Assembly: GCA_016839625.1 (NCBI GenBank)
Contig: JAEOTY010000022.1
Span: 1 to 60,501, forward strand
Origin: Candidatus Hodarchaeota archaeon
GTDB taxonomy: Archaea > Asgardarchaeota > Heimdallarchaeia > Hodarchaeales > Hodarchaeaceae
Direction: 5' to 3'
DNA: 60,501 nucleotides
The notes beneath the pieces were generated by a model that was not told the DNA's origin, did not search any database, and saw nothing but the letters and a program-made list of their open reading frames with translations. The translations under genes were made by a program, and so were the position numbers. Of this stretch, positions 9,538-33,188 are shown piece after piece (within the stretch, counting starts at the first letter, position 1; every line of letters begins with the position of its first letter).

Positions 9538-9636
9538 GCCATTTTTCTTCCTTTTTATCATTTTTCAGTCAAAATTGTCTTAAGTCCAGATTATTTCTTT
9601 CTTTCTTGATCAATAAGGCTTGTATTTTCATTCAAA

Positions 9637-10962
9637 TTATATGAAAACCAGTTCAAAAAACCAGATCATATCTTTCAGAAGTGAATATCCCGCATTTATT
9701 CCTCTTATTGTTTGCGGAACAGTGATTTTGAAATCTATCCCTTTGTTAGGTTGGCCTTTTGTGGTTATGATGCAGAGATCAGTGTCGGTAATTCTATGGG
9801 CTATTCCAGTATGCAGTTTGAGCTTGTCTATTATCTCTGGATGTCCTGAAATTGTAATATCTTTCCATGAATCACTCCAATCTGTTGACCGTGCTTTTTC
9901 TTGAAATTTGATTTGAAGTTCAAAAATTAGTGATGGAGAGAGAACTGAAACCATATTAAACTGGGCTAGCTCTTCACCTGGAAATGTAACAATAATTTCT
10001 TGCGCAGCTCTTGAAAAAGTTAATATTTTGACTTGTGAGGCTTCAAACTCTAGTTTTTTGACTTGATAGCGAATGGAGCTGAACAGTGATTGATAGGGGT
10101 TTTCAATGGATATTAGTTTCGCAGGAACTATTTCCTCTATTGGTTTATCAAAATCAGCTGAAATCTCCAAGTAAGATTCATCAATTTCAACAGGTTCTTC
10201 TTTTATCGATACAGCCTTTTCTGGAAAGGCATTTGACACTATTTGAATTTCCTTTTCTATTTTTGGGATCCGTAATGGCGGAGGAAGATCAATTTTTTTT
10301 CTTTTACGGATACCTCGCATGAGATAACCTGTTTCAGAAAGAGCGCCAACAGTTCCAAGGAGTATGTTATAAGCTTGAACAAAACTGTTAGAACTCATAG
10401 TTTCCATGCGTACTTGAATAACAGGGACATCCTGCACCCAACGAAGATCGAATCCTTCTAAATCAAAACTTCTAAGAATAAGTTTTCCTAAATCAGCCCG
10501 CATCAGCATGTTCTGTGCGAAAAGTGAATTCTCCGTTAAAATAAGAAATCGGTCATCAAACCTAGGAATACCTATTTCAACTTCTTTCCCGTGTCGTGAC
10601 ATCTTGTTCCATCTGGATTCGAGACTTAAAGATAGATTAAAGGGTTCATTATCTCCTTTTTGGTACTTGCGGTGATCAACTTCCCCTCTTAGGATTAAAT
10701 CTTGATCTGTTCGATTTGATTCTTTGTGAGTGACTACCTTCACTTCTACAAGTTTAAATGGACCAGCATCTCGAGATTGAATTATCGGGTCAGTTGAAAT
10801 GCCCCCATAATCAACAATAACAGTCTTGGAATACCGTCGACTTAAATATCGATAAACGTCTAAAGAAAAGTCTTTTTCAGCTTTTATGGATGAACGTAGG
10901 ATGAAGAAAATGAGGTATGAAATAACAAATACGAATATACCAATGAAGATGAATTCAAGCAA
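9637..10962 (-). CDS. Hypothetical N-terminally membrane-anchored protein
   Basis: The 441-aa ORF has one N-terminal TM (FIFIGIFVFVISYLIFFIL). I recognise no motif in the remainder. Confidence 0.5.
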   Translation of the reverse strand: MLEFIFIGIFVFVISYLIFFILRSSIKAEKDFSLDVYRYLSRRYSKTVIVDYGGISTDPIIQSRDAGPFKLVEVKVVTHKESNRTDQDLILRGEVDHRKYQKGDNEPFNLSLSLESRWNKMSRHGKEVEIGIPRFDDRFLILTENSLFAQNMLMRADLGKLILRSFDLEGFDLRWVQDVPVIQVRMETMSSNSFVQAYNILLGTVGALSETGYLMRGIRKRKKIDLPPPLRIPKIEKEIQIVSNAFPEKAVSIKEEPVEIDESYLEISADFDKPIEEIVPAKLISIENPYQSLFSSIRYQVKKLEFEASQVKILTFSRAAQEIIVTFPGEELAQFNMVSVLSPSLIFELQIKFQEKARSTDWSDSWKDITISGHPEIIDKLKLHTGIAHRITDTDLCIITTKGQPNKGIDFKITVPQTIRGINAGYSLLKDMIWFFELVFI

Positions 10963-11188
10963 CCAAAATCACCCATTTAAAATAATCCACGTGATTTAGC
11001 CTTTAGTTTATTATGATATAGCGGTTTTGTTCACCACTGCTTTGAGTCTATCTAAAGGAGACATTTGTGTCGAGAAAATTGAATATTTATAACTTGGTTC
11101 CAAATTAGTCTAAATCAGATTCTAGCCTCTTCTTGTGACACGTATTTTATGATATCATCAATATTTTACAGAAAAGAGTTGAAACTTA

Positions 11189-11479
11189 ATGAAAACACGG
11201 AGAGAAAAAATTATCAAGCTTCTTTCGGAGCATGAAGATATGACACTACAAGAATTAGCAGATTTGATAAACGTACCAGTGAAAACGGTTGTCCAAGATA
11301 TTGATTCAGTCAGAAAAACGATTAAATATGATAATAAGCGAATAGAAGTTCGTCCCGCAGTATGTTTGAATTGTAATTTTGTCTTTTCTGGTAGATCTCG
11401 GGTATCTGATCCTCACAAGTGCCCCGAGTGCCATTCTGAATGGATTGCTCCCCAAAAGTTCCGAATTTCCCCTTCCTAG
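11189..11479 (+). CDS. Small transcription regulator: HTH fused to a zinc ribbon (COG3357-like)
   Basis: KIIKLLSEHEDMTLQELADLINVPVKTVVQDI is HTH-like. It is followed by CLNC-x20-CPEC (four Cys). Confidence 0.6.
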   Translation: MKTRREKIIKLLSEHEDMTLQELADLINVPVKTVVQDIDSVRKTIKYDNKRIEVRPAVCLNCNFVFSGRSRVSDPHKCPECHSEWIAPQKFRISPS

Positions 11480-11565
11480 GCAACGGAGCATTTGAAATTG
11501 GGAAGGGGATTTTCTTTATCCTAATATCAACAGTTCTTAATATTCTAATAATCTATTCGTAAGGT

Positions 11566-12069
11566 CTAGATTTCATCTGATGTAGGTTGGTAGTTACCTT
11601 TGTATACTGTTTTATCATCAACAGCACTTATGAAAATCATCTGCGCAATCGCTACTGATACATGCAATGAAAAAGGCAGAGACGCGAGTAATAAAATTCG
11701 ACCACGATTATCTCCCACTCCTTGAAACCCTTTATCCCATATTCCCGAGAATACTGTAACCCCCATTCGCAAAAGGGTAGATCGTGGTGCAACAAATCCA
11801 ATAGCATTATTGGGGATGATGATTTCCTCTGCGACTTCCACTAAATAGGACCCTGGTCTTAACTCCCAGAAGTTATTGGTAAGCTTTAGTTCCAATAAGT
11901 TAGGATATTGTCTTTGTTTAATCTCGGAAGTTAATCTAACTTTTCCATCTAGCTGGAATAACCGTTTTATAGAGATGTCAATTCCATTGGGTTGAACAAT
12001 CCCCTGAGGGATGAACTGTTGTATTTTCACACCTGGCCAAACAGCAGGCATTGGGTGTTGCTGATCCAT
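11566..12069 (-). CDS. dut: dUTPase of the dCTP deaminase/dUTPase superfamily (archaeal type)
   Basis: The 167-aa sequence contains VQPNGIDISIKRLFQL, PGSYLVEVAEEIIIPNN and FVAPRSTLLRMGV..SGIWDKGFQG. This matches the archaeal Dut pattern. Confidence 0.7.
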   Translation of the reverse strand: MDQQHPMPAVWPGVKIQQFIPQGIVQPNGIDISIKRLFQLDGKVRLTSEIKQRQYPNLLELKLTNNFWELRPGSYLVEVAEEIIIPNNAIGFVAPRSTLLRMGVTVFSGIWDKGFQGVGDNRGRILLLASLPFSLHVSVAIAQMIFISAVDDKTVYKGNYQPTSDEI

Positions 12070-14728: not shown

Positions 14729-16147
14729 GTGGATCTAGGTGATCCTACTGATTATCTATATACAGAACTAATTTTCGACAAAGACCCTTTCTTTATTAGA
14801 ATCATCCCTTTAGTTTCCATTGATAAAGAGAGAATTCAAGCCACACTACGGAAACCAATGGCTGATTTAGCTAGAGAATATTGTGGTTTTATGACTGATG
14901 ATTTTTTCCGTGTAGGGTTAAATTTCTTCAGTGAAAATAGTCAAAATCTTGTTGTTAGGGATGGAATCTTGTTTTCCTTCAAATCTTACAGGGACAGTTA
15001 CAATTACGTTACCGAAATCAGAGGAGGGGATGAAATCGAGGAGTATAGCCTCGAAGAGGTAATCAATCAAGCAGAACTGTATAGAACATTTACTGATTAT
15101 AGGATTGTCCAGACTGCAGATCGAGAGAAATCTTTTCTTCCTTATTCTGTTATTTGTAAAATCTTCAATGATCCTCCAGAATGGGCAATTATTGACACTG
15201 AGAACATTAAAGGATTCCTGAGATTTCCCTATATTACCCTTGAATCCCTTCAAATGACTCCAGATTTAAAAACACTCACAATCGATAACTTTTGGACAAA
15301 AGAAATTATCGGAACAGAGGCATTAAATTTCTGTCACAGTTTAGAAGAAATTAGTATTTTTGATGAAGGGCAGATCCTAAAAAAATTCGATTTTCCTAAG
15401 CGTTTACTCCTTCCAAATCTGAAAATACTAGAAATCATTGGTACTAGTCTAAAATATTTACAACTAACGTTCCTGCAAGACTCGCCTAATCTTCAGAGCA
15501 TAAATGTTGTACAAAACCTCCTTGTCAAAGAAATTGTCTTCCCACTCCTAGAAAAACATGCTTTGCTGGAGGAAATTCAACTTAGTAATAATCATCTAGA
15601 GTCCTTTGTGCTGCCTGACTTATTAAATTGCCCAAATCTGAAGGAATTAGCTGTAAGTAGGAATCATCTTCAACAATTAAACCTAACTCCACTACGTTCT
15701 TGCGTCAACCTTCAGAAATTAAATTTGAGCGCAAACCAGATCAAAAACCTAGACCTCTCTCCACTTCAACACTGCCTTAATCTTAATGAGTTTTTTATTA
15801 ATAATAATCGTATCGAGACACTAGACCTCACCCCATTGCAACACTGCAATCACTTGAGGTATTTTGATCTTAGCAGAAATCGGATAGAAAAACTAGATCT
15901 ATCTACTTTTCAACATTGTTCCAGTATAAAAGAAATAGCTCTTTCACATAACCTTTTGAAAGACTTGGATCTCTCCCCTCTTAAAGTACTTCCCAATCTA
16001 GAAAAAGTGAATTTAGCAGATAATCACTTGGAAGTCATTGACCTGTTTCCCGTTCAACACTGCCCGTATCTTAAGACTATCGATTTACAGAATAATCCTC
16101 TTAAAAATATTCTCAATCAGAAGGATCTACCAGTTTTAAGATATTAA
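14729..16147 (+). CDS. Leucine-rich repeat (LRR) protein
   Basis: The C-terminal half holds about 10 units of about 22 aa, L..L.LS.N.L..LDL.PL..C.NL. Examples are LKELAVSRNHLQQLNLTPLRSCVN and LQKLNLSANQIKNLDLSPLQHCLN. The track start is GTG. An in-frame 50-codon ORF lies just upstream (see findings). Confidence 0.85.
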   Translation: MDLGDPTDYLYTELIFDKDPFFIRIIPLVSIDKERIQATLRKPMADLAREYCGFMTDDFFRVGLNFFSENSQNLVVRDGILFSFKSYRDSYNYVTEIRGGDEIEEYSLEEVINQAELYRTFTDYRIVQTADREKSFLPYSVICKIFNDPPEWAIIDTENIKGFLRFPYITLESLQMTPDLKTLTIDNFWTKEIIGTEALNFCHSLEEISIFDEGQILKKFDFPKRLLLPNLKILEIIGTSLKYLQLTFLQDSPNLQSINVVQNLLVKEIVFPLLEKHALLEEIQLSNNHLESFVLPDLLNCPNLKELAVSRNHLQQLNLTPLRSCVNLQKLNLSANQIKNLDLSPLQHCLNLNEFFINNNRIETLDLTPLQHCNHLRYFDLSRNRIEKLDLSTFQHCSSIKEIALSHNLLKDLDLSPLKVLPNLEKVNLADNHLEVIDLFPVQHCPYLKTIDLQNNPLKNILNQKDLPVLRY

Positions 16148-17089: not shown

Positions 17090-18100
17090 TTAAAATAATG
17101 GTTGATATGGAGAAAAAAATATAACAATAGGTATAGACAACCCTATACATAAAATAGTGTAGAGAACAAGTGTTATGACAATCTCATTGTCATTCTCTGG
17201 CCAACTTTTATTTAACAATACTCTAAGAGGAGTAAGTAATAAACCAGAAAAGATTTTGGGTAGGGGAATCATAAATGGAGTATGATTACGCCAATTTTCA
17301 TAACCTGATATTTTCTTCTCAATCATGCTATTTTCTTCACGCATTGCAATTCCTATTACACAAATTGCTGATAATAACCAGAACAGAGAAGGCACAGGGA
17401 GCCATCTCTCCAAGCCAGGCCGAAATCCAATTAGAATCATCATACCATAAGTTGCCAATAAGTACCCTAGATATTGAGGGTGTCGACAGTACCTATAAAT
17501 CCAAAAGTCCGTGAATTTACATCCTACAGATTTTCCTTCAAGCCAAGTCAAATTACCAAAAATAAACAAAAATACTCCTATTATCATAATGAGGAAAGGA
17601 AGTAGAAACTCTAATCCTCCATAGATTGTCAAATAGACTGGGAAGAAAATACAATCCCCAAGAAGTAATATCTCTGGGTAAGTTTCCGCGATTGGTAACC
17701 AGAGCATCAGTAAAGCGCTAAGACCAGCCAGCCATGTCATTGAAACGCTTAAATAGCTAAATGTTGGAAGAATTAGAGCTACTGAACCGGCGAATGATAG
17801 TTTAAATCGCTTAATGAGGAAGCCAATGATAATTAAACTTAAAAGCACAACCAATGCAATAAAAAAGAAAATTGGTATTTTTTCTATCCAAGCAACTTTG
17901 ATTGGGTCATTACCGTGATAAGTCCAAGGATCAGGTACAAGTGTTATCATGATGTATTGAAAAAAAACAAGGATTAAAATGGCAGCGAAAGCAAAAAAGA
18001 CATAAGTAAGGATCATTGTTAGAATCAAGATAAAAATTATGAAAGATAACATTTCCTTTTTGGTAACAGGTTCAATCTTATCTCTCTCTTGATTTAGCAT
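17090..18100 (-). CDS. ICMT/PEMT-family integral membrane methyltransferase
   Basis: The 336-aa ORF has about 8 TMs. The C-terminal YRYCRHPQYLGYLLATYG matches the RHPxYxG signature of isoprenylcysteine carboxyl methyltransferase-family proteins. Confidence 0.6.
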   Translation of the reverse strand: MLNQERDKIEPVTKKEMLSFIIFILILTMILTYVFFAFAAILILVFFQYIMITLVPDPWTYHGNDPIKVAWIEKIPIFFFIALVVLLSLIIIGFLIKRFKLSFAGSVALILPTFSYLSVSMTWLAGLSALLMLWLPIAETYPEILLLGDCIFFPVYLTIYGGLEFLLPFLIMIIGVFLFIFGNLTWLEGKSVGCKFTDFWIYRYCRHPQYLGYLLATYGMMILIGFRPGLERWLPVPSLFWLLSAICVIGIAMREENSMIEKKISGYENWRNHTPFMIPLPKIFSGLLLTPLRVLLNKSWPENDNEIVITLVLYTILCIGLSIPIVIFFSPYQPLF

Positions 18101-18500: not shown

Positions 18501-20030
18501 GTGACCAAACTAAACTATTGTAGAGGGTATATCATGATGTGTAAGAAATTTCATTGCTTTATTATTGGTTTCGTTATCCTATTGATGATTTTGCCGATAA
18601 CTGGAGTCATTAGTAACACTGAAGTTGTTAATGATTACTATTTTTCTGTCCCGCAAGAAACAGTGAATGTTAGTATCAACTTAGATGGATCTGCGGATAT
18701 TGAATATCGGATTACTTTCAAAGTGGAACCTGGGGGACAAACTATTGATATTGTGGATATTGGGTTTCCTAACAAGCATTATGATCTTGGAAGTGTTACC
18801 GCTGATGTAGATGGGCATACTATCACAGATATAAAAGTTTCAGAGGCGATAGATATTGGTGTGGAAATCCATCTCGGTACATATGCAATCACTGACACAG
18901 GAACTTTACACGTTCGGGGAAACCAGCCGTACATGGTATTTGAAGATACTGAGGAGGAGGAAATGGCTTCAGTAGAATTTGGAAACACTTGGTGGGGTTC
19001 TGCTTATACCACGGGTTTTACAAACTTAACTACACGAATTATTTTTCCCGCTACTGTAGACGCATCAACTTATACCAAGTGGCACCGATTACAACCAGAC
19101 CAGCAATACAGCTTATCAAACGGTCGTAAGGTATTCGAATGGCATGAGCCAAATGCGCTGCCTGATAGACAGTACCAATATGGAGTTTCTTTTCCTAAGG
19201 AAGGTGTGACATGGCATACGGGTATCCCTCCCACCACAGAAGAGCTTCTGATAATGATAGCCGTTGTTGGTGGCGTGATAATTGTTATTATTATTGTAGT
19301 TATATCTTATAGCAGGAAGCGGCGTCGATTGATGGATTACATCCCGCCTTTTGTCTCTGTTCCCACGGCTGGCCCCAGAACTGACCTCCGTAGAGAAGAG
19401 GTGGCAATTGTCCTGGAGAAACCAGTGAATGTTACGATTTCAATGATTATTCTCACCCTAACCCAGAAAGGCCTGCTACGACAGCTTTCATCTGACAGTC
19501 CTCTCCTTGAACCCGTCCGAGGGGCTCCAAGAAAGCATATCCGTAAATATGAGCGAGTTGTTCTTAGCTCTATTCGTCCAGATTTCAGTCTTGATGAGGA
19601 TGATATGGTAAAAGCCGTATCTAGCCTAGTAAAGTCCACTCAACGACGTACACGCGGCTATTCTTATGAAAGAACTATGGAATATTATGAAAACTTAATT
19701 CGAGACTCCATTGCAACAATTAAATCAGAACCCGATCCACGGAATGTTCCTGCTGAAGCTTGGTTTTGGGCAATCTTGGATGAGGAATTCTTACCTGATT
19801 TAGAAGTACAAATCACAGAGCACGAGGATTATTACGATTACTATCCTTGGTATTACCATTATGGTTATCATCATTGGTATTGGGTACCTCGGGGCCGATC
19901 TTTCACAAGCCGTTTGACGAGAATTAGCCATCCGATTCCTCGGAGTAGTAGTGGGGGTTCTAGAGGAGGCGGTGGGTGTGCCTGTGCTTGTGCTGGTTGT
20001 GCCTGTGCCTGCGCTGGAGGTGGACGCTAA
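18501..20030 (+). CDS. DUF2207-like bitopic membrane protein with an aromatic-rich segment and a C-terminal Cys-Ala repeat tail
   Basis: It has a signal/TM, then ETVNVSINLDGSADIEYRITFKV (DUF2207-like N-domain). A TM (IMIAVVGGVIIVIIIVVISY) followed by RKRRR puts the C-terminus in the cytoplasm. It also has YYDYYPWYYHYGYHHWYWVP and the tail SSSGGSRGGGGCACACAGCACACAGGGR. The probable true start is the ATGATG at 18534. Confidence 0.7.
   Translation: MTKLNYCRGYIMMCKKFHCFIIGFVILLMILPITGVISNTEVVNDYYFSVPQETVNVSINLDGSADIEYRITFKVEPGGQTIDIVDIGFPNKHYDLGSVTADVDGHTITDIKVSEAIDIGVEIHLGTYAITDTGTLHVRGNQPYMVFEDTEEEEMASVEFGNTWWGSAYTTGFTNLTTRIIFPATVDASTYTKWHRLQPDQQYSLSNGRKVFEWHEPNALPDRQYQYGVSFPKEGVTWHTGIPPTTEELLIMIAVVGGVIIVIIIVVISYSRKRRRLMDYIPPFVSVPTAGPRTDLRREEVAIVLEKPVNVTISMIILTLTQKGLLRQLSSDSPLLEPVRGAPRKHIRKYERVVLSSIRPDFSLDEDDMVKAVSSLVKSTQRRTRGYSYERTMEYYENLIRDSIATIKSEPDPRNVPAEAWFWAILDEEFLPDLEVQITEHEDYYDYYPWYYHYGYHHWYWVPRGRSFTSRLTRISHPIPRSSSGGSRGGGGCACACAGCACACAGGGR
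19977..20015 (+). repeat. TGY-GCY hexanucleotide repeat encoding (Cys-Ala)3-Gly-(Cys-Ala)3
   Basis: The sequence reads tgtgcc tgtgct tgtgct ggt tgtgcc tgtgcc tgcgct, immediately before gga ggt gga cgc taa. Confidence 0.9.
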
Positions 20031-21350
20031 ATGACGGAAAATAGTAAATTAGTGCATTTAAGAGAAGGAGAGGATGGGGATATTCGAATGCATCTTCGTC
20101 ATCAAGGTGATAGTGGTCTCCTTATCATTAATGCCTCGAGAATATTGAACCTTAACTCTACTGCAACGTTTTTTGTAGAAAGAATCTTGAAAGGTAAAGC
20201 GGACTCTGAGATTGTTAAGGAGCTTAGAAGTCTGTATCGCGTCAGTGAACAGCAAGCTAATACTGATCTACAATCCCTGAAAGAAATGATACACACGTTA
20301 TCAACTACCGATGATATTTGTCCCATTCATTCCCTTCAGATGGAAGAATCGAATTTAACAGAGCTTCCTCTGACTGCTCCTTTACGTATGGATCTAGCTA
20401 TCACCTATCGGTGTAATAATAAATGTGAACACTGTTATAATCAACCAGACTCACCTAATGCAACTGAATTAGATACAAACTATTGGAAATCCATCTTAGA
20501 GCGACTTTGGGGGATATCCATTCCCCATGTGACTTTTACAGGAGGTGAACCCACGTTACGCTCCGATCTGCCTGATTTAATTGATCACGCAGAGGATATC
20601 GGAATAGTTACTGGACTTATTACAAATGGGCGAAATCTGAAGGATGCCAACTACCTAGATAAGTTAGTAAAAATGGGGCTTGATCATATTCAGATAACAT
20701 TTGAAAGCGTAGATGAAAGAATTCACAACCAAATGGTGGGAAATGATCAAGCGTGGGCAGAAACGGTTGAGGGAATAAGAAATGCCATAGATACACCCCT
20801 TTATACTCTGACGAACACCACACTCACTCGAATAAATGCCCCCAAGATAGAAGAGACTATTGAGTTTCTGAATAGCCTTGAGGTTGAACAATTCGCTTGT
20901 AACTCTATAATATATGCTGGAAAAGGGAAAAATATGTCACTGATTGCCTTAACAGAAAGCGATCTGATCCCTATTATCGAATCGATTCAGGATGCAGCAG
21001 ATGATTATGGGATGCAGTTTATTTGGTATACTCCAACCAGATATTGCGAACTTGACCCCAACAACCTTGGGTTAGGAGTCAAACGATGCTCAGCATCTCA
21101 TTTAGCTATGGCGATCGAACCCAATGGAACTGTTATTCCATGTCAGAGCTATTATAAAGGACTAGGCCATATTCTAAATGACAGCTGGGAGAGTATTTGG
21201 AATAATCCTCTATCAAAGGAACTTCGAACTCATACAAACGTCCCTGATGAGTGTCAGAATTGTAACCAACTTGAGATTTGTGGTGGTGGCTGTCCTCTGA
21301 GTTTTTATCGTGAGGAATATCTATGTCCCGAGAGCCAAGCCAACGATTGA
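20031..21350 (+). CDS. Radical SAM enzyme with an N-terminal PqqD/RRE-like domain and a C-terminal SPASM domain (peptide/protein-modifying type)
   Basis: CNNKCEHC (CxxxCxxC, nt 20412-20435). The N-terminal LLIINASRILNLNSTATFFVERILKGKADSEIVKELRSLYRVSEQQANTDLQSLKEMIHTL is PqqD-like. C-terminal Cys clusters are CSASH...IPCQSY and CQNCNQLEICGGGCP. Its ATG directly abuts the TAA of the upstream gene. Confidence 0.85.
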   Translation: MTENSKLVHLREGEDGDIRMHLRHQGDSGLLIINASRILNLNSTATFFVERILKGKADSEIVKELRSLYRVSEQQANTDLQSLKEMIHTLSTTDDICPIHSLQMEESNLTELPLTAPLRMDLAITYRCNNKCEHCYNQPDSPNATELDTNYWKSILERLWGISIPHVTFTGGEPTLRSDLPDLIDHAEDIGIVTGLITNGRNLKDANYLDKLVKMGLDHIQITFESVDERIHNQMVGNDQAWAETVEGIRNAIDTPLYTLTNTTLTRINAPKIEETIEFLNSLEVEQFACNSIIYAGKGKNMSLIALTESDLIPIIESIQDAADDYGMQFIWYTPTRYCELDPNNLGLGVKRCSASHLAMAIEPNGTVIPCQSYYKGLGHILNDSWESIWNNPLSKELRTHTNVPDECQNCNQLEICGGGCPLSFYREEYLCPESQAND

Positions 21351-22114
21351 AATCTAAGGATCAAATCTCCACCGAGGATGATGTCAGATACTTTGATGAG
21401 CTCTACCAAGGACAACTAGATTGGACTGCTTCAACCAGAAAGCATTTATACCGACAGATGGATCTCTTTCATGCAGAACAGGTTTTAGAAGTAGGATCTG
21501 GTACAGGAGCGATTTTGAGGGAAATTCATACAATAAATCCTCGTGCTAGGCTCTTTGGTCTTGACCGAAATTTAGTGGCGTTAGAGTATTCCCAAAAAAA
21601 GGCGACAGATGAGACCTTGATTCTAGGAGATGCTACTCTCTTACCATTCTCTTCCCAAAGCTTTGATATTGTGGTATGTCACTATTTCCTTATGTGGATT
21701 GAAGATCCTATTACTACTTTACGTGAAATAATGCGAGTAACTCGTTTTGGGGGATGGATAGCCTGTTTAGCTGAACCTGATTATGGAGGTCGGTTGGATT
21801 TCCCTGATAGTGAAATATGGAAAGATCTTCTTCTAAACTCTCTTTCTGCAGCGGATCCTTTTATAGGAAGAAAATTAAGAACATATTTTTATCAAGTTGG
21901 ACTGAAAGCACATGTTGGATTACAATCAGTGGTTTTACCTTCTGACACGGTAAATAACCTTTATGAGGCCGAACTTGCAAAGCTAGAGCGATTTATTTCC
22001 CCTGAGAATAATATAAAATTAAAAAAATTAACTGAATTTTTTAAGACTCATAAAACTGAAGAGCTGTTCAGCTTCATGCCAGTCTTCTATGCACTTGCTC
22101 ATAGAACAGAATGA
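21323..22114 (+). CDS. Class I SAM-dependent methyltransferase
   Basis: VLEVGSGTGAILREI (motif I), LGDATLLPF and FDIVVCHYFLMWIEDP. It overlaps the rSAM gene by 28 nt. Confidence 0.8.
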   Translation: MSREPSQRLKSKDQISTEDDVRYFDELYQGQLDWTASTRKHLYRQMDLFHAEQVLEVGSGTGAILREIHTINPRARLFGLDRNLVALEYSQKKATDETLILGDATLLPFSSQSFDIVVCHYFLMWIEDPITTLREIMRVTRFGGWIACLAEPDYGGRLDFPDSEIWKDLLLNSLSAADPFIGRKLRTYFYQVGLKAHVGLQSVVLPSDTVNNLYEAELAKLERFISPENNIKLKKLTEFFKTHKTEELFSFMPVFYALAHRTE

Positions 22115-22118
22115 ATTA

Positions 22119-22604
22119 TTACTTGTCTTCCTTCTCATTTAATTTATCAAAATTAAGAACTTGATTTTGCTTAATTTTCTTCAAAGTTATAGAAGTATAT
22201 GTTTTGTTAACTCCAGGAATAGTAGAGATTTTTCTTTCGACGATTTCGTGGAGGTTTTCAATGTTTTGAGCGTTTCCAATACAAAGAATATCGTGAATAC
22301 CAGTGGTAATCTTAACGATGTGGATTTCTGCGATTTTTTTTAGGACAGATAACACATCATCCATGACACTAGCGTTAATGTCCAATTCACATATGAATTC
22401 GATTGGATAATTCACTTTTTCAGGATTCACTTTAATGGTAAAACCCGTTATTATTCCTTTATTCTTTAGTTTTTCTACTCGGTCTGATATAGTCTGGGCT
22501 GTAACATCCAATATTTCTGCAATATCTGTATATGTAGTCTTTCCATCTTTACTTAAAGAGCGAATAATCATTTCGTCGATTTTATCTAATGTTGTAATCA
22601 CCAT
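22119..22604 (-). CDS. Lrp/AsnC-family transcriptional regulator
   Basis: IIRSLSKDGKTTYTDIAEILDVTAQTISDRVEKLKNKGIITGF is an HTH_AsnC motif, followed by a C-terminal RAM-like domain. Length 161 aa. Confidence 0.85.
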   Translation of the reverse strand: MVITTLDKIDEMIIRSLSKDGKTTYTDIAEILDVTAQTISDRVEKLKNKGIITGFTIKVNPEKVNYPIEFICELDINASVMDDVLSVLKKIAEIHIVKITTGIHDILCIGNAQNIENLHEIVERKISTIPGVNKTYTSITLKKIKQNQVLNFDKLNEKEDK

Positions 22605-23724: not shown

Positions 23725-24255
23725 ATGATTCAATTTCTGCCTCAGGTTTATTTCATGTACTCCCAAGAACCAAAGAATCTGAATGAATCGCCTGATAAAA
23801 CTAAAAAGGAACCATTTTTCTGTTCCCTGTGTTCTGCAACTAAAAATCGCTATGAAGAAAGAGTAAAATGTCCTAAATGTGCACGGCTTGTCTGTAAGGA
23901 CTGTTTTGAAAGCCTGAATGTGGTAGGACTGGTTCAATGCCCATTTTGTTCTTCTTCTCTCAAAATAGATAGTAAGGGACAAGATTCATCTGCTATTATT
24001 GCAAATATTCAACGAGGTCAAAGAAAAGTCGAAATGGGTGACTTGTTTAGTGCTGAAGCATATTTTCAAAATGCACTGAAATTAGACTCAAATTCAATTA
24101 TTGCTTGGAAAAAACTAGGAATACTTTATTTTAAGAAGAAAAATTGGGAGCGAGCTAAATTTTGTTTCTCAAAAGTTTTAAAAGTGAATTCACAAGACGA
24201 AGAGGCAAAAAAGATGTATATAGAGGCTGATCATCGGATCAGAAGTTATTATTAA
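23725..24255 (+). CDS. C4C4 RING-like zinc finger fused to TPR repeats
   Basis: CSLC-x12-CPKC-x4-CKDC-x11-CPFC gives eight Cys with cross-brace RING spacing. It is followed by TPR-like AEAYFQNALKLDSNSIIAWKKLGILYFKKKNWERAKFCFSKVLKVNS. The likely start is an internal Met (MYSQEP). Confidence 0.6.
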   Translation: MIQFLPQVYFMYSQEPKNLNESPDKTKKEPFFCSLCSATKNRYEERVKCPKCARLVCKDCFESLNVVGLVQCPFCSSSLKIDSKGQDSSAIIANIQRGQRKVEMGDLFSAEAYFQNALKLDSNSIIAWKKLGILYFKKKNWERAKFCFSKVLKVNSQDEEAKKMYIEADHRIRSYY

Positions 24256-25625: not shown

Positions 25626-28193
25626 GTGCGAATAATGAGATCCAATGGTAAGTTTTCAACACTGAAAATTGTATCTCAGTATTTTGAAGATTTTTTTTAT
25701 AACTTAAGCCCAAAGGTAGAAAAGCATATTCTCAACCAACTTAGTAATCAACAGCCTATACAAGAAAAGTTTCATGCGGTTCTAAATGAAATTTCTTGGT
25801 CTGAGTGGCAAAATTCTCGCTTCCAATTCGTTAACCCTATAACAAAGATACTCATTGCGTTAATTTACGATAAAGTTCTTCTCACATTAAAAAAAATGGA
25901 AAACTCAACTGAGCTTAACGAATTTTTAAGTAAAATTTCGATTCTTGCCGCCTCTCAAGTTAAAAGTTCCAATAATAAGGCTGAACTGAAGGATACCTTT
26001 TTTCAGTTGATTGAAGGTATCTGGAAATTAGCAGATCAATGCGAGCCACGAATCCCTATTCTGGATCCAGAGTCTTTTCCTCTCAATAAGCTCCTTGAAT
26101 TTGTTTTCAATGAGTGGGAAAGCTGTCTTGCAACTATAAATCTAATCCAACAGATTGAACAGGATAGTGGATGTGAAAATCAATTATTGCTGCCTTATAT
26201 TTTCGAGATAGGAATACCAGGCCAACGAAAACAACAGCAAGGACAAATTTTCACACCCGATCGAGTTGCAAGTTTTATTTGTAAGCAGAATATTTCAGCA
26301 AAAACGACTAGAGTTCTCGATCCTGCGTGTGGTACTGGTATTTTTCTATTAGAAGCGCTAAGAATTTTCGCCGATTCTCCCTCAGAACCTCATCAAATTG
26401 AGTTAATTGGTATTGAAAAAGATCCTTACCTAGCAGATATTGCTGAGAGTGCTATTAATTATTTTCTTTTGGTTAATTCTATTTCTCTAGACAATTGGAA
26501 AATTCACAGAGACGATTTCTTCAATTGCTCACCAGAATCGTGTGGATTATTTCGAGATAATGTAGATCAAACGGTATTACTGATGAATCCCCCATATACT
26601 CGTCATGAGCAATTAAAAGAGGAATATAAGAAGTATTTAGCAGATCAAATCAACTTTGATATAGCAGATATTAACAAAAATCATACTGCTTTTGGGAGTG
26701 TATTGTCAGGGAGATCTGGATTATATGTTTTTTTTCTTATTCATGCAACAAGATTTCTCAGGCCAGGGGATCATCTTGGTATGATAATACCCAATTCCTG
26801 GCTAGATGTGGATTATGGTCATCAATTACAGCATTTTATTTTGAATCATTATTTCATTGAATCTATTATTATTAGTCGTCTAGAAAGATTTATTCAGACT
26901 GTAGATGTGAATACTGCTGTTTTAAAACTAATCAGAAAGAAAATTGAAAATAGTAATAGAGAAATAGAAATCCAGAACCAAGTGGCGTTTATATCGATTG
27001 AGAAGACATCAGACCTTAACTATATTCAAGGCTCTTCCACATCAAGAGATTCCTCAGATGTTAGGATTGTTTCAGTAGAACAGAACAGTCTTTTTGCGAT
27101 ATCTAAGTGGGGTGTTTATCTTCGAGCTCCTTTAATCTATTTCCAATTGTTGGAACATCTTGAGAAGAGGATGGTTACTCTCGGAGACATAGCTCATGTA
27201 CGAAGAGGATTTACCAGCGGTGCTAATGACTTTTTTTATGTAGGTAAACCAGGAAAGTCCAACACATTCTTTAATTCTAGCTGGGATCCTGAAACAGGTG
27301 ATTTAAATCTATCTATAAAGAATGATACACTAGTTAGTCAGTTTCATGAGCAAGGTTTTCAAGTGAAAGACCCTATGTTTATTATTGAAAAAGGGTATTG
27401 GATGCACCTTTCTAATTCTTCCCAAAAGAATTTTACTTGGGAGTTTTCCCTTCAAAATGATAAAGGTGAGACTTGGGTACCCAACTATTTAGTGAAATCT
27501 CCTCGGGAGCTCTCAACATATGAAATCCATGAGGAAAACCTGAAATATATTGTGATCTTGATTTCAGAAGATACTTATTGGAATGGCTTGCAAACTGGTA
27601 TAAAAAATTATATTCGATGGGGAGAACAGTGGGTTCCTTCAGTAGGAAAAAAATTTAACCAAAGACCTACCTGTCTGTCACGAAAGAATTGGTATGAATT
27701 ACCTTCGAAAGAATATAAGTTATTTAACCTTTTATGTTTGATGACAATTAATGATCGGTTTTCCTTCTTCTATAATCCCCGCGGATTCCTTTTTGACGCT
27801 CGCCTTTATGGTATACGTTTTCTGCAAGTTACCAAATTTTTTGCCTACTATTTCTTATTTCTTAACTCTATCATCACAACAATTCAACTCGAGCTTTTAG
27901 GGAGAAGTAATTTAGGTGAAGGGGCATTAGATGTCAAAGTTTATGAGTACGAGTTACTTAAAATCCCAAGTTTTAAATTCTTTGAAGAAAATCAGTTAAA
28001 AAGTGTAATCAATATCTTTTCACGTGTTTTGGAGTGTTCTCCGTTCTCTGTTATTCAGGGAAAACCAAAATCAATTAAACAGTTGACAGATGCTTTTGTT
28101 TCTAATCTATTTACTCATTCCTCAGGGTTCATTAACAGCTTATTTGAGGAATTGAAGAATTTAGTTCGAATGCGTATTGAAAAAGCAAGATAA
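25626..28193 (+). CDS. Large gamma-class N6-adenine DNA methyltransferase-like protein (Eco57I/type IIG-like architecture, no nuclease motif seen)
   Basis: QIFTPDRVASFI (motif X), VLDPACGTGIFLLEAL (motif I), LLMNPPYTRHE (motif IV, NPPY). The C-terminal region has LGDIAHVRRGFTSGANDFFYV and LNS...GEGALDV, which is TaqI_C-like specificity. Length 855 aa. Confidence 0.8.
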   Translation: MRIMRSNGKFSTLKIVSQYFEDFFYNLSPKVEKHILNQLSNQQPIQEKFHAVLNEISWSEWQNSRFQFVNPITKILIALIYDKVLLTLKKMENSTELNEFLSKISILAASQVKSSNNKAELKDTFFQLIEGIWKLADQCEPRIPILDPESFPLNKLLEFVFNEWESCLATINLIQQIEQDSGCENQLLLPYIFEIGIPGQRKQQQGQIFTPDRVASFICKQNISAKTTRVLDPACGTGIFLLEALRIFADSPSEPHQIELIGIEKDPYLADIAESAINYFLLVNSISLDNWKIHRDDFFNCSPESCGLFRDNVDQTVLLMNPPYTRHEQLKEEYKKYLADQINFDIADINKNHTAFGSVLSGRSGLYVFFLIHATRFLRPGDHLGMIIPNSWLDVDYGHQLQHFILNHYFIESIIISRLERFIQTVDVNTAVLKLIRKKIENSNREIEIQNQVAFISIEKTSDLNYIQGSSTSRDSSDVRIVSVEQNSLFAISKWGVYLRAPLIYFQLLEHLEKRMVTLGDIAHVRRGFTSGANDFFYVGKPGKSNTFFNSSWDPETGDLNLSIKNDTLVSQFHEQGFQVKDPMFIIEKGYWMHLSNSSQKNFTWEFSLQNDKGETWVPNYLVKSPRELSTYEIHEENLKYIVILISEDTYWNGLQTGIKNYIRWGEQWVPSVGKKFNQRPTCLSRKNWYELPSKEYKLFNLLCLMTINDRFSFFYNPRGFLFDARLYGIRFLQVTKFFAYYFLFLNSIITTIQLELLGRSNLGEGALDVKVYEYELLKIPSFKFFEENQLKSVINIFSRVLECSPFSVIQGKPKSIKQLTDAFVSNLFTHSSGFINSLFEELKNLVRMRIEKAR

Positions 28194-28222: not shown

Positions 28223-30484
28223 ATGTTATATAAACACTCTACTGTTGTTAAGAAAAAACGACGTGGACAATATTTCACACATCCTGCAATTGCGCGGGAA
28301 ATTGTCCAAGATATTTGCGAATCCATTGTTTTAGAGCGTTTTTGGAAACCATGGGAAGCTCTTAAGGAATCTGCAGATTATTCAAAGATTCAACACCTAC
28401 TTGATCGAGTTTTAGCTTTACAGTTTGTTGATCCAGCCATGGGAAACGGAGTTTTCTTGATTGAAGTCTTTCATTACTTTGAGAAATTCATACAGCAGTT
28501 ATGGGAAAGGACTTGTTCATCTTCATTTTTAGTTTTTCTTTGTGATTATTTTCAGCAAAGATTAGCTTTAGATTTTTCATTACTTGAAGAAACAGATGAG
28601 TTAACATTAGATATTTGGAAACTCCATATTATAAGATCGATGATATATGGAGTTGATCTTGACCCAAAAGTTGTCGAACAGGCTCGTAATAATATCATTA
28701 GTGAATTTTTTACTTCCCAAATTAAACCATTAGCAAGAATTTTTACTCATCTTAATTTAAAAATCGGAAATTCGTTATTTTCTCCTTTACGAATGGATAA
28801 TGAAAACAGAGCTCAGTTATATTCTCAATTTCATTCAGATATTAATGTTCTTCTTCTTCAAAGGAAGCAAATCCAAGAACGTTGCTGGAATGCTTTTAGC
28901 GATCTAGAATTAGATCGTTTATTTGAGGAAAATGAGACACAAAAAGATCGTCTTGCAAATCAGCTGATTACTCAAGTTGCTTCCATTCCTGGGTTCTCTT
29001 TTTTATTAAAAGTTGAAAATACTGAAGTTAATCCATTTTTATGGGAGCTTGAATTTCCAGAGGTTTTTTTCCCTGATAAACCTGGATTTGATGCCGTTAT
29101 TGGAAATCCTCCTTGGGATAAATGGAAACTTTATGATCGTGAATGGTTAGGATCTACTGCTATCGGAAAATCAGATCACGCTCAGCAAATCAGTGAAATT
29201 CTAAAGAATGACGCTGAATCTCATTCAGATTATTTAAAATTAAAAGAATTTTACAAGGTGACCACAAAATATTTCAACAAGTATTTTCAGTGGCAGCCAG
29301 GTGAAAAAAACCTATTCAAGCTTTTTTTCGAACGTTTTTACGATCTTTGTTGTTGTTCTAATGGTTTTGTGGGAGTCATACTTCCTGGAGGGTTTTTAGG
29401 TGAGTATTACAGTCAACCTTTACGGGAAATGCTATTAAAACAAATGCAGCTTCACTATATTATTGAAATCATCTCAAATCAAGAGATGTTTCCTGATGCT
29501 GAACCTGGTCTAAGTATTCTTATTATTCGGGCCCAAAAAAATAGTACAGGAAAATTATTCTCATTTATCAAAGGGATTACTTCAATAGAAGCTTTTACTA
29601 AACTATTCAAAGAAGATTTTAAGAAACAATCTGATAATCTCATTTTCTTTGCTCAAGAGGATATTCTTAATTACTCCCCTAGATGTATCATTCCAGCTGT
29701 ACGAAATCAATTGGAATTGAGAATATTTCAGAAAATGACCAAATATCCTTCTCTTTCTTCTGCGATATGGGGTTGTAACACTTCTCGTGGAGTCGACATG
29801 ACAAATGATCGTGATTTATTGGTTAAAAATCAAACACAATTTCCGCTTATAGAGGGACGCCATTTAGTTCGTCTTGGGTTTGATGATACGTCCCCTCGGT
29901 ATTGGATACGATCATTTGAAGAATATAAGAAAAAGATCCCATTCTGGAATCAAACAATTATTGTATGGAAAAATTTCTCGGGAAATCATCGTCGTCGTCG
30001 AATGCGGATAGCTATTCTTCCACCAGGAGCAGTTATTTCAAATAGTGTGATTTGTTTGTATAATTTTCCGTCCATACCTGACGTACACTATTATCTGGCT
30101 GGGATTATGTGTTCAATTCCCTTTGAATTTCGTATACGTCAACTTTGTTATGGAATAAATATCAATCAATATGTTATCGATAGTATAACAGTCCCCTTTT
30201 TTGATCCTACTCAAGATCATCATCGAAAACTAGTAGCTACTGTCAAGCAATTCCTTCCACGCGGAAAAGAATGGGCAAAACGGAAAATGGAGGCTATTTC
30301 CTCGATTTCAAAAGCAAGGTTAGAGGTAGATTACCAAAATACAATCACTAAAATCGATGCATTAGCTGCTTCGATCTATAACCTGACCAGATCTGAATTT
30401 GAAACTACTTTGAATGCTCATTCTCAATTAGAGGATCCATACCGTATTCAGGCACTTAACCATTTTGACTTAGATAAACCTTAA
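28223..30484 (+). CDS. Large gamma-class N6-adenine DNA methyltransferase-like protein
   Basis: RGQYFTHPAIAREIV (motif X), FVDPAMGNGVFLIEVF (motif I), AVIGNPPWDKW (motif IV, NPPW) and PLIEGRHLVRLGF. Length 753 aa. It lies 29 nt downstream of the previous methyltransferase. Confidence 0.8.
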   Translation: MLYKHSTVVKKKRRGQYFTHPAIAREIVQDICESIVLERFWKPWEALKESADYSKIQHLLDRVLALQFVDPAMGNGVFLIEVFHYFEKFIQQLWERTCSSSFLVFLCDYFQQRLALDFSLLEETDELTLDIWKLHIIRSMIYGVDLDPKVVEQARNNIISEFFTSQIKPLARIFTHLNLKIGNSLFSPLRMDNENRAQLYSQFHSDINVLLLQRKQIQERCWNAFSDLELDRLFEENETQKDRLANQLITQVASIPGFSFLLKVENTEVNPFLWELEFPEVFFPDKPGFDAVIGNPPWDKWKLYDREWLGSTAIGKSDHAQQISEILKNDAESHSDYLKLKEFYKVTTKYFNKYFQWQPGEKNLFKLFFERFYDLCCCSNGFVGVILPGGFLGEYYSQPLREMLLKQMQLHYIIEIISNQEMFPDAEPGLSILIIRAQKNSTGKLFSFIKGITSIEAFTKLFKEDFKKQSDNLIFFAQEDILNYSPRCIIPAVRNQLELRIFQKMTKYPSLSSAIWGCNTSRGVDMTNDRDLLVKNQTQFPLIEGRHLVRLGFDDTSPRYWIRSFEEYKKKIPFWNQTIIVWKNFSGNHRRRRMRIAILPPGAVISNSVICLYNFPSIPDVHYYLAGIMCSIPFEFRIRQLCYGININQYVIDSITVPFFDPTQDHHRKLVATVKQFLPRGKEWAKRKMEAISSISKARLEVDYQNTITKIDALAASIYNLTRSEFETTLNAHSQLEDPYRIQALNHFDLDKP

Positions 30485-33188
30485 TAATGTGTATTTCGTC
30501 TGGGGTCAGACCATATAGTCCGAATATAAGTTCATTCAACTGTACCTCTAGATCTTTCCTTTTACTAGCATTTTTATCTGTCAATTTAGATGCGACTTCC
30601 ACAATTGATTTGTATTCTGGTTTAGCAGGATCAGGAACTATAAGTGGAAAATTTTGGATTTGTTTGGGATAATATTCGAAAAGACCACCTAGATCCTTAA
30701 TAGAATTTAACGCATAATATGTGAGCACTTCTGAATTCAAGATGGCTACTAGAAAGAGAAGAAAATCTTTCCTTGAGAATTTCTGTTTGGGAATTATCCA
30801 AACCACATCTTTTGATGAAAGATTGCCTCTCCAATCTATTGCAAAGGTATTCAAACTAGCTTTATAGGGTGATACAATTTTTAAGGAACTCCACTCCATC
30901 GTTTTTCTTTCATCACCAGATCGCCACAAATAAAATTCCAAAACACGACTTCTATTTAATAAAAGGGCTTTGTTTTGTTCAAGGTAATTCATCACTTTAT
31001 TATTTTCTTTTATTTCATGTTCGCGATAACTAGGAGCAAAAAGAACCTCTCTTCCTGTTTCTTCTACAAAAAATCGCTTTATATCTTTTCCTTTAATCCA
31101 AGACCTAATGTGGTTTAGATCAATCTTCAATACCTGCGAAAAATAATATTGGTCTTTGGGTGCAAAAACTTGATCACAACCAGTTTCAATTCCCTTACTA
31201 ATGTTACTAACATCGTTTAACTTCATATTTGAAACTAATTTGATATGATTAAGGAGTTTTAGCGTCTGGGGGTCAAGTAATTTCCACTTTTCTGGTCTTA
31301 AATCAGATTGATAAATTCTTTTTGTTTCTCTAATAACTTTATCAATTCCCTTGTGGTATTTATGATAAGCAAAACTCTGATTGGAGGAAAAGGATCCTTT
31401 CTTCAAGAATAAAATAATATTCTTGATGTTGGCTTTTTTGAAAATAGAAAACATTGCTAAATCGTAGATTTGAATAATTCCAGATGATTGTAAAATAAAT
31501 TCCCTAATTTTCGTTGCATATACACTATGCAATAGATATTTCGGAAGAATAAATGATAATATTCCATTATCTGCACGTAAAGCTGAAATTGCTCGATAAA
31601 TAAAAAAATATGATAAATCATTATTTCCTGTGTAGATTATTGGATACTCTACATGCAACATTTTGCGTGTAGTCGTCGGTAAATCTGTTAATGCTATATA
31701 AGGAGGATTTCCAACGATTAAGTCGAATTCTTGGGTATTATCTCCAAAATTTATCCAATGAAATTTCTTTGGAATTGAATAGGCTTTGCATATTACCTTA
31801 GAAGAGGATATTGCATCCTCTTCAGAGTTAAGTGGATGTGTAAAAACAGCATAGAGGGTATAGGATGAAGAAGGTGACTGTGAAAGAGAAAAACGAATAT
31901 ATTTCCTAATTTTTTTGTCTAGTTTATGTTTTTCATTATTCCAGCGAGCCCTATCTCCTTCTAAAATGAAATATTTGATTGTGTTTTTCTTTAAGAACTC
32001 TTCGAGGACCATGCCAAGATACCTCAAATTTCGAAAAGATTTTGGAGGCATCGTTAATTCGTAAAGAACAAATTGATTGAGCATTTTGAGGTCATATTGA
32101 TCATTTAACAGATCTTTTCTCTGTTTCAACTTCATTTTTGGCAGATTATTATTCCCAAAATCTGATGGTAAGGTTTGAAATCCAAAAAGGCTATCTCCCT
32201 CTATAATATTGCATTTAAATGAACAATCAGCTTTTAAATCCCTGTCCTCTTGGCAATTTATCCACAGCCAGAATTTAAGAGAAGTAATTTTAATCGCTAA
32301 AGGATCTGTATCTAACCCAAATAGGTTATTTTTGACTATTTTAATTTTTAATTTCTGAGTAGATATTTTTGGTTTAAGTTGTTTCGAAATATTCAACATT
32401 TGTTTTGCAGCAGCAAATAAAAACACACCTGTCCCGGTTGCTGGATCTAGAATTTTTATTCTCTCAAATGTCCTTAGAAATAAAGATTTCAATTCTTCGT
32501 CTTGTTCTAATATGCCCTGTTGACAATCAGATAGTGAATTAAATTCATTAAAGCCATGAAAAGTTATCTTTATCCAATTAAGCAGGCTTTCTTCAGTTAT
32601 GTGAGCTGCTAGAGGATAGGGTGTATAAACAACACCCCAATTACATTTAGTAGAGGATTCATGTGTTTTTAATTGAGCTGTAATTTCATCGAAGATTTCT
32701 AATGAAATTATTCCCTTCTTTTTGAGTTTTGAATCATTGTAGCTTCGCTCCCACTGAAATTTTGTAGATAGTTGATCTGCTATTGCACCCCAATTCATTG
32801 TTTTTAATGGGCTGTTCCAAATCTTTTCTTTTTTGCTAAAATTTTCACTAACCAGTAATTTTACAATATTTTCCGGAATTGATAAATCCTTCATTGAAAG
32901 AATTATTTCTTCAGGATTACCATAACAGTTGTAGACTTCTGACCAATTATCAAACCTTTTATTATTGAATAATGGGATATTATTTGGATTGAAGAATAGA
33001 AGACAGATGAATTGTATTATAAGGTCATTACATCTTTGCGATTTTAGTCTTGTTTCCTTTAGATCAATATTAATCTTTAATAAACTTAATTGAGAGTAGA
33101 TTTCTAATAGAATGTTTGTAATTTCTTTAGGAATCTCAGATACTCGCGAAAATTTAGTCCATGAATAAGTGATGTCTATTTCCTCCAT
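30456..33188 (-). CDS. Large gamma-class N6-adenine DNA methyltransferase-like protein
   Basis: WGVVYTPYPLAAHI (motif X), ILDPATGTGVFLFAAAKQ (motif I), DLIVGNPPYIALTD (motif IV) and C-terminal AILNSEVLTYYA...LGGLFEYYPKQIQNFPLIVP (TaqI_C-like). Length 910 aa. Its 3' end overlaps the convergent gene by 29 nt. Confidence 0.8.
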   Translation of the reverse strand: MEEIDITYSWTKFSRVSEIPKEITNILLEIYSQLSLLKINIDLKETRLKSQRCNDLIIQFICLLFFNPNNIPLFNNKRFDNWSEVYNCYGNPEEIILSMKDLSIPENIVKLLVSENFSKKEKIWNSPLKTMNWGAIADQLSTKFQWERSYNDSKLKKKGIISLEIFDEITAQLKTHESSTKCNWGVVYTPYPLAAHITEESLLNWIKITFHGFNEFNSLSDCQQGILEQDEELKSLFLRTFERIKILDPATGTGVFLFAAAKQMLNISKQLKPKISTQKLKIKIVKNNLFGLDTDPLAIKITSLKFWLWINCQEDRDLKADCSFKCNIIEGDSLFGFQTLPSDFGNNNLPKMKLKQRKDLLNDQYDLKMLNQFVLYELTMPPKSFRNLRYLGMVLEEFLKKNTIKYFILEGDRARWNNEKHKLDKKIRKYIRFSLSQSPSSSYTLYAVFTHPLNSEEDAISSSKVICKAYSIPKKFHWINFGDNTQEFDLIVGNPPYIALTDLPTTTRKMLHVEYPIIYTGNNDLSYFFIYRAISALRADNGILSFILPKYLLHSVYATKIREFILQSSGIIQIYDLAMFSIFKKANIKNIILFLKKGSFSSNQSFAYHKYHKGIDKVIRETKRIYQSDLRPEKWKLLDPQTLKLLNHIKLVSNMKLNDVSNISKGIETGCDQVFAPKDQYYFSQVLKIDLNHIRSWIKGKDIKRFFVEETGREVLFAPSYREHEIKENNKVMNYLEQNKALLLNRSRVLEFYLWRSGDERKTMEWSSLKIVSPYKASLNTFAIDWRGNLSSKDVVWIIPKQKFSRKDFLLFLVAILNSEVLTYYALNSIKDLGGLFEYYPKQIQNFPLIVPDPAKPEYKSIVEVASKLTDKNASKRKDLEVQLNELIFGLYGLTPDEIHIIKVYLSQNG

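Follow-up and report, generated by a model that had tools for sequence, protein, structure and literature searches.

To our knowledge, radical S-adenosylmethionine (SAM) enzymes that combine a SPASM domain with a RiPP recognition element (RRE; RiPP, a peptide made by the ribosome and modified after translation) serve almost entirely to produce small peptides as natural products, or cofactors derived from peptides. A 60,501-nucleotide stretch of DNA from a Candidatus Hodarchaeota archaeon (contig JAEOTY010000022.1; the whole stretch is called the window here) encodes such an enzyme immediately behind a large membrane protein that ends in alternating cysteines and alanines. The question this locus raises is whether the tail of the membrane protein is the substrate of the enzyme. 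We consider it fairly probable that the cassette is a protein-tail maturation system whose RiPP-style "precursor" forms one end of a large bitopic membrane protein.

The cassette consists of three genes on the plus strand. Gene 1 (18501-20030) encodes the membrane protein, 509 amino acids long when read from GTG 18501; the likelier start, ATG 18534, gives a 498-residue protein, which is also the database gene call (P0001) and the form to which gene 1 residue numbers refer. Gene 2 (20031-21350, 439 amino acids) encodes the RRE(PqqD)-radical SAM-SPASM enzyme, based on Pfam matches, and gene 3 (21323-22114, 263 amino acids) encodes a class I SAM-dependent methyltransferase, based on a match to Methyltransf_11. 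The original prediction, made from this DNA alone, had described the genes as translationally coupled, and the open reading frame (ORF) coordinates bear out the layout: the TAA of gene 1 (20028-20030) abuts the ATG of gene 2 at 20031, with 0 nt between the genes, and genes 2 and 3 share a 28-nt overlap (21323-21350).

The core of the tail, CACACAG-CACACAG-GGR, is encoded at 19977-20027 (residues 482-498) and is followed directly by the stop codon. The C terminus, ...YYDYYPWYYHYGYHHWYWVPRGRSFTSRLTRISHPIPRSSSGGSRGGGGCACACAGCACACAGGGR, contains six Cys and reads GGGG-CACACAG-CACACAG-GGR in translation, as had been noted, and this ending is kept in homologs. The expected C-terminal tryptic peptide is GGGGCACACAGCACACAGGGR. 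Anaerobic digesters rich in Anaerolineae and Cloacimonadota would be the natural place to find ...CACACACAGCACACAGGGR peptides.

Relatives of gene 1 are numerous. A word-indexed search returned 716, an exhaustive profile search returned 1198 clusters at 50% identity with E<=1e-3 (441 with E<=1e-30), and when one genome per GTDB species was scanned, at least 335 species had a relative. The 80 best loci of the species scan, all from metagenome-assembled genomes (MAGs), are the basis of the counts anchored on the tail protein. They span Hodarchaeales/Heimdallarchaeia together with Chloroflexota (mostly Anaerolineae), Acidobacteriota/Aminicenantes, Zixibacteria, Cloacimonadota, Fermentibacteria/Aegiribacteria, Edwardsbacteria, Planctomycetota, and deltaproteobacteria. 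The bodies of the archaeal and bacterial proteins are about 30-37% identical, and all 80 proteins carry the tail. Nearly every complete family member ends in (CA)n-G-CACACA-GGGR, with a variable number of upstream CA units. Among 147 family representatives from the exhaustive search, 131 have a tail of at least five Cys-x dipeptides, 2 have a shorter CACA(CA)GGGR, and 14 have no tail, most of the last being evidently truncated gene calls.

The 17-residue core is conserved more than almost any other part of the gene 1 protein. When the window was compared with the 80 loci, the final 10 residues and the position of the stop were identical in 81 of 81 sequences, while the codons that encode them drew on all 4 Ala, 2 Cys, 4 Gly, 6 Arg, and 3 stop codons. 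Because the peptide is identical while synonymous codons vary, the tail is under strong purifying selection at the peptide level. We rejected an origin of the tail as a DNA repeat or slippage artefact on the same grounds, since synonymous codons vary freely around an invariant peptide. Such a degree of constraint on the core implies a precise chemical or structural product.

A second tail subtype was found at about 20 loci (L088-L148, e.g., L095:2484-3956). It is longer than the window tail, with ten Cys in CVCACAxCACACACVSCACACAGGGAR and variants of it (consensus C[VI]CAC[AH]xCACACAC[VA][SG]CACACA[GHS]GG[AG][RHG]). The bodies of these proteins are 23-27% identical to the window protein, and their genes are still directly upstream of the radical SAM gene.

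The tail protein and the radical SAM enzyme are linked in both directions. Anchored on the tail protein, 70 of 77 evaluable loci had an ortholog of the enzyme within 5.3 kb. In 67 of these it was downstream on the same strand at 42-88% identity, with a gap of <=200 nt in about 63, and in the remaining 3 it was 4-5 kb upstream. Seven of the 77 loci had no radical SAM gene within 4-8 kb, and 3 of the 80 loci were too short to judge. Anchored on the enzyme, in a set of 80 metagenome loci (46-53% identity to gene 2; 77 evaluable), an ORF with a Cys-alternating tail ended upstream in 65 of 77, mostly 20-170 nt away. Thus, the two genes are linked in both directions across more than 100 lineages, as expected if Cys-Ala-tailed homologs co-occur with the enzyme elsewhere. 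In the Hodarchaeales (the window and two further loci, L001 and L003), the three genes alone are common to all loci; the flanking genes are unrelated, and no small ORF or intergenic DNA upstream of gene 1 is conserved.

Some loci are more elaborate. Tandem tail-protein duplicates occur in L036, L059, and L149, and an expanded locus in a Chloroflexia MAG (L053:3900-12500) encodes, in order, a zinc-ribbon protein of the type described below, a radical SAM/SPASM enzyme, a 304-residue protein, a second, pseudo-radical-SAM-like SPASM-type protein that has no CxxxCxxC (6667-7965), a tandem pair of tail proteins (7947-9728 and 9800-11728), and finally a methyltransferase.

Gene 2 has the parts expected of a peptide maturase. 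All three domains that had been read from the sequence scored above their Pfam cutoffs: Radical_SAM (PF04055) at 87.1 bits against a gathering score of 29.5 (residues 124-280), SPASM (PF13186) at 41.6 bits against 21.5, and PqqD (PF05402) at 27.1 bits against 23.4 (residues 33-83). These matches place the protein in the radical SAM superfamily, in its SPASM subgroup, and among RRE/PqqD-bearing maturases. Based on PF05402 and an AlphaFold2 model of the enzyme (pTM 0.82), the RRE/PqqD-like domain covers residues 7-92 (20049-20306), built from four strands (7-41) and three helices (43-92). In an alignment of 33 orthologs, the RRE residues R19, H21, L22, R23, L31, N34, N42, T44, and A45 are invariant, as are the cluster-binding C128, C132, and C135 of the CxxxCxxC motif, CNNKCEHC in the window (20412-20435). 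Within the SPASM auxiliary-cluster domain (21087-21326 by PF13186 and the alignment), the alignment shows no variation at C353, G366, C371, C408, C411, C417, or C421, while C339 and C432 each occur in >=90% of sequences. CQNCNQLEICGGGC forms a CX2CX5CX3C motif, and the domain as a whole follows the CX9-15GX4C ... CX2CX5CX3C ... C pattern of the SPASM subgroup.

The best structural matches of the gene 2 model are SkfB, SuiB, PqqE, and CteB, RiPP maturases that share its RRE-radical SAM-SPASM build, followed by anSME (4k37). The model aligns with SkfB, SuiB, and CteB over its full length and with PqqE over about 320 columns; the top matches, SkfB (6efn) and SuiB (5v1q/5v1s/5v1t), cover about 440-480 columns including the RRE, with TMq 0.61-0.64 and 17-19% identity. 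Searched by sequence, the best matches in the PDB were PqqE (6c8v), SkfB (6efn), GDGT-MAS (7tol), and SuiB (5v1q).

The enzyme does not fall within any subfamily with a known substrate. No NCBIfam family reached its cutoff, and the best 25 of 79 matches all scored <=36% of the respective cutoff. The best curated sequence relative was PqqE (TIGR02109; 138.1 bits against 381), and other matches were a pseudo-SAM/SPASM family (TIGR04347; 135 against 525), NirJ2 (124 against 500), SkfB (94 against 300), and MftC (TIGR03962; 82.7 against 265). The models of the SCIFF maturase, anSME, and QhpD were not among these 25 matches, and neither was the ACGX-repeat model. The link to the ACGX-repeat system that the original prediction had drawn did not hold, since rSAM_ACGX (TIGR04340) scored only 53.8 and 61.2 bits against a cutoff of 400 in two bacterial orthologs (P0211 and P0162). 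NCBI labels orthologs of gene 2 only "PqqD family peptide modification chaperone" or "radical SAM protein". Both the subfamily and the co-occurrence analyses therefore support the prediction that an RRE-radical SAM-SPASM maturase acts on the tail of a large membrane protein, not on a small peptide.

We modeled gene 1 with AlphaFold2 from 78 homologs (model me2609be23079; mean pLDDT 83.6). The model has an N-terminal hydrophobic helix (residues 2-22), an extracytoplasmic beta-sandwich domain (residues 37-221, 18642-19196; pLDDT >93), and a single transmembrane (TM) helix (residues 235-266, 19236-19331) followed by RKRRR, which agrees with the bitopic topology proposed earlier. A winged-helix-like plus helical domain follows (residues 287-465, 19392-19928), and residues 471-498 form a disordered tail. 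The C-terminal third and the tail are predicted to be cytoplasmic, because the TM helix is followed by RKRRR (positive-inside rule). The disorder of the tail in the model fits what would be expected of an enzyme-accessible substrate.

By Foldseek, the ectodomain of the membrane protein matches the N-terminal beta domain of M1 aminopeptidases. The best PDB match of the whole model is chain E of the human OST (oligosaccharyltransferase) complex (8pn9, 6s7o), which we take to be ribophorin I, at E 2e-9 over about 414 columns with a TMq of only 0.30. Gene 1 has no Pfam or NCBIfam match, and its profile found no meaningful match among PDB sequences. The protein had been called DUF2207-like, and it does share the layout of DUF2207 (YciQ-like) proteins: a signal or anchor, an extracytoplasmic beta domain, a TM helix, and a cytoplasmic part with a Gly-rich tail. 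This label describes layout, as homology lacks significant support from hidden Markov models. The N-terminal model (PF09972) found no match at E<=10 in the four members tested, the window protein matched neither PF09972 nor PF20990 at that threshold, and we rejected DUF2207 membership; one bacterial homolog (P0045) gave a faint DUF2207_C match (PF20990, E 0.057, 13.5 bits against a cutoff of 33). The extreme aromatic patch pointed out in the same protein (19830-19889) is, in the family alignment, present in archaeal members; it is not conserved more widely, being found elsewhere only in two odd bacterial members.

A second conserved element lies N-terminal of the core. The motif S-F-T-x-R-L/V-T-x-x-S/T-H/N-P-x-P (residues 456-469, 19899-19940; sFTxxVTxxTNPxP in the family) is found 12-25 residues N-terminal of the first Cys and is conserved from archaea to bacteria, with F457 nearly invariant and P467 invariant across both. 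It is followed by a Gly/Ser-rich linker and then the core. In this leader-like position the motif may be the recognition sequence for the RRE, and the conservation of the RRE fits with that of the motif.

From these parts, a maturation sequence can be proposed. The RRE of gene 2 would dock on the leader-like segment of gene 1, and the radical SAM/SPASM domains would apply 5'-deoxyadenosyl radical chemistry to the Cys/Ala core. Our best guess for that chemistry, by analogy with SkfB, CteB, and QhpD, is Cys-S to Ala-C thioether cross-links of the sactionine or ranthionine type, which would rigidify the two CACACA half-sites. The methyltransferase, where present, would act afterwards, for example on a thiol or the C-terminal carboxylate. 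The tail loci have no conserved protease, exporter or transporter, or cofactor-using oxidoreductase; because no protease or exporter gene is conserved, the mature tail probably stays attached to the membrane protein.

Gene 3 fits less tightly into this scheme. It matches Methyltransf_11 (PF08241) at 70 bits against a cutoff of 21.2, which places it among the class I SAM methyltransferases, and it reaches the cutoff of no specific NCBIfam family. Homologs are present in 52 of the 80 tail-protein loci at variable positions. They lie directly after the radical SAM gene in the Asgard and Zixibacteria loci, in Anaerolineae either some 1.2 kb further downstream or on the upstream side, and directly after the tail protein in one Chloroflexia subtype. 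The assignment of this third partner as a class I methyltransferase stands, but the gene accompanies only about two thirds of the loci and has no fixed place in them.

We also looked for free-standing versions of the tail. A tail-only search returned 22 proteins of 39-75 amino acids, and those inspected were mostly fragments of long homologs. Three candidates were rejected as free-standing precursors: L162 is likely a frameshift, L165 sits at a contig edge, and L164 has an in-frame stop. In the last case (L164:700-1124), one in-frame TAA breaks a long tail-protein homolog some 110 codons short of its end, so the tail is called as a separate 68-residue gene; the interruption could be a sequencing error, a pseudogene, or recoding. 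The only possible stand-alone precursor peptide among those inspected is an apparently free-standing 70-residue ORF (L163:3032-3244) with the C terminus CACACAGCACACACAGGGR. The genes before this ORF are unrelated, it shares 4 nt with the start of a methyltransferase homolog, and its contig ends before any radical SAM gene could be seen. A strict RiPP pathway, with a short precursor, removal of a leader, and release of the core, does not fit, as the candidate substrate is a membrane protein of about 500 residues in essentially all complete members.

Most bacterial loci contain a further gene. In 68 of the 80 loci, a zinc-ribbon protein of about 120 amino acids is encoded directly upstream of the tail protein (e.g., L030:7543-7932 and L053:3946-4335; the other 66 are among L004-L080). 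The protein contains two TM helices, carries a zinc ribbon (C..C...CPYC) in its C-terminal part, and invariably ends in (E/A)EPKW. We did not find it in the window or in the other Hodarchaeales loci; the resemblance of a window ORF at 23725-24255 to it was insignificant (E 0.036), and this candidate was rejected. In Candidatus Heimdallarchaeum aukensis, a weak zinc-ribbon ORF (L038:7333-7881, E 0.005) lies upstream.

Several observations weigh against the tail-maturation reading. Any modification is a candidate, read from sequences. RiPP cores normally vary, which makes a core of 17 invariant residues unusual; a site that binds a metal or cluster, or the precursor of a cofactor, suits this invariance at least as readily as a cross-linked peptide does. 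The eight conserved Cys of the SPASM region could fully ligate both auxiliary clusters, so they give no specific pointer to thioethers. The bacterial EEPKW-ended protein is an alternative candidate for the substrate of the enzyme. Finally, the partner is not nearby in 7 of 77 tail-protein loci and 12 of 77 radical SAM loci, and the methyltransferase was found in just 52 of the 80 loci.

In another explanation, the tail would give rise to a redox or metal cofactor, either tethered to the protein or released, made by the radical SAM enzyme with or without the methyltransferase. Candidates would include a thiooxazole- or thioamide-like chelator, a chromophore cross-linked through C-C or C-S bonds, or a structure that scaffolds a metal-sulfur cluster. 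If an exact cofactor structure were functionally essential, this would explain the invariant core, as it does for PqqA and PQQ or MftA and mycofactocin, and a core that stays the same in two domains of life is closer to cofactor precursors than to antibiotic RiPPs. PqqE (138 bits) and the maturase of mycofactocin (83 bits) are among the curated relatives of gene 2 that score best, the thio(seleno)oxazole radical SAM enzyme SbtM is among the weak matches of a bacterial ortholog, and alternating Cys would put at least six thiolates on one face of a hairpin. However, these family scores are all far below cutoff, the loci offer no conserved protease, transporter, or cofactor-using oxidoreductase, and the upstream CA repeats vary in number, which speaks against one rigid cofactor that involves the whole tail. 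We regard a cofactor precursor as unlikely and give similarly modest credence to the related idea that the tail becomes a membrane-tethered, sulfur-rich cofactor or a metal or redox centre on the cytoplasmic face of a receptor-like protein.

Rather improbable, in our estimate, is a tail that stays unmodified and serves as a handle for binding metal or Fe-S, with the enzyme acting on something else and the three proteins forming a membrane complex in which gene 2 and the tail are not enzyme and substrate. In bacteria the other substrate could be the EEPKW zinc-ribbon protein, receiving a Lys-Trp cross-link as made by SuiB or WgkB; alternatives are an unannotated small peptide or a non-protein substrate. 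The upstream position of the zinc-ribbon gene in most of the loci and its invariant end speak for such a role, as do SuiB among the best structural matches and WgkB among the weak NCBIfam matches. The Hodarchaeales argue otherwise: the zinc-ribbon protein was not found in their loci, window included, while the enzyme and the tail protein are still tightly coupled there; in the window 0 nt separate genes 1 and 2, and genes 2 and 3 overlap by 28 nt. No upstream ORF or DNA is conserved among these loci. It is also the tail, not the EEPKW protein, that is present at every locus. The strict two-residue periodicity of the core would suit an epimerase or other non-cross-linking modifier that abstracts alternate C-alpha hydrogens to give a D/L segment, as EpeE/YydG and PoyD do. 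EpeE (8ai1) is among the structural matches, but only at rank 47, far behind cross-linking maturases in both structure and sequence. Nothing in the genomic data is specific to epimerisation, which is mass-neutral, and we consider this very improbable.

Set beside known systems, the favored tail-maturation system has several partial precedents. As in SCIFF/ranthipeptide loci (CteB, 5why), an RRE-radical SAM-SPASM gene adjoins that of a substrate whose Cys-rich C-terminal core is highly conserved. In SCIFF systems the substrate is a free peptide, about 45 residues long, whereas the core here is the last 17 residues of a membrane protein of about 500, and the Cys spacing differs, with strict C-x dipeptides in the cassette. 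The ACGX-repeat system likewise pairs a radical SAM/SPASM enzyme with a repetitive sequence rich in Cys, Ala, and Gly; the repeat here is a CA dipeptide with Gly at block ends only, and the substrate is not a small peptide. A PqqD-type RRE, fused to the enzyme in gene 2, and an invariant core are features in common with PqqE/PqqD/PqqA and MftC/MftB/MftA, but PqqE and MftC make C-C bonds on Glu/Tyr and Val/Tyr of free peptides, and the cassette core has neither Tyr nor Glu. The substrates of SkfB (Cys-Met thioether) and SuiB (Lys-Trp cross-link) are small secreted peptides, unlike the tail protein.

QhpD/QhpC and anSME provide precedent for SPASM enzymes that act on Cys of a folded protein or subunit, not of a natural-product peptide. 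In QhpC the products are Cys-to-Asp/Glu thioethers, and anSME converts Cys to formylglycine in the sulfatase motif C/S-x-P/A-x-R, which is absent from the gene 1 tail. The targets of QhpD and anSME are soluble periplasmic enzymes, in contrast to the membrane protein here. Because protein-modifying radical SAM-SPASM enzymes are known, the cassette is not categorically new. The literature we could search, with subscription-only papers outside its reach, held nothing relevant on the tail string, Cys-Ala repeats, DUF2207 with radical SAM, or membrane-anchored RiPP precursors, and the tail family and its pairing with the enzyme are apparently undescribed there and in Pfam and NCBIfam.

Divergent from the cassette in the window is a 336-residue polytopic membrane protein (17090-18100, minus strand) with weak DUF1295/PEMT matches (isoprenylcysteine or phospholipid methyltransferase-like), and an Lrp regulator lies downstream (22119-22604). 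Both were rejected as parts of the cassette, being conserved at no related locus. A 472-residue ORF (14729-16147) consists of leucine-rich repeats (LxxLxLxxNxL) in its C-terminal two thirds. The motifs DPACGTG and NPPY, which typify N6-adenine DNA methyltransferases, occur in an 855-residue ORF (25626-28193). It is followed by large ORFs at 28223-30484 and 30456-33188 (minus strand), and these ORFs are possibly a restriction-modification or defence locus. PADLOC gave only generic viperin-core and methyltransferase matches, and a link of the cassette to a defence system was rejected.

The cassette is a real and widespread variant of radical SAM peptide maturation that belongs to none of the families against which its membership was tested and is apparently undescribed. 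The system is neither rare nor lineage-specific, given that it is carried by 335 or more species-level genomes and by about 1200 clusters at 50% identity; the tail-protein family is abundant in anaerobic digesters and sediments. If the tail is matured as we favor, RiPP-style leader and core logic would extend to full-length proteins, and identifying the product would define a new protein modification as well as a function for a large family of hypothetical proteins. If the tail instead gives rise to a cofactor, the cassette would represent a protein-derived cofactor common to Asgard archaea and many anaerobic bacterial phyla, and its post-translational chemistry, carried out on a full-length membrane protein, would be of a new class and not a natural-product pathway.

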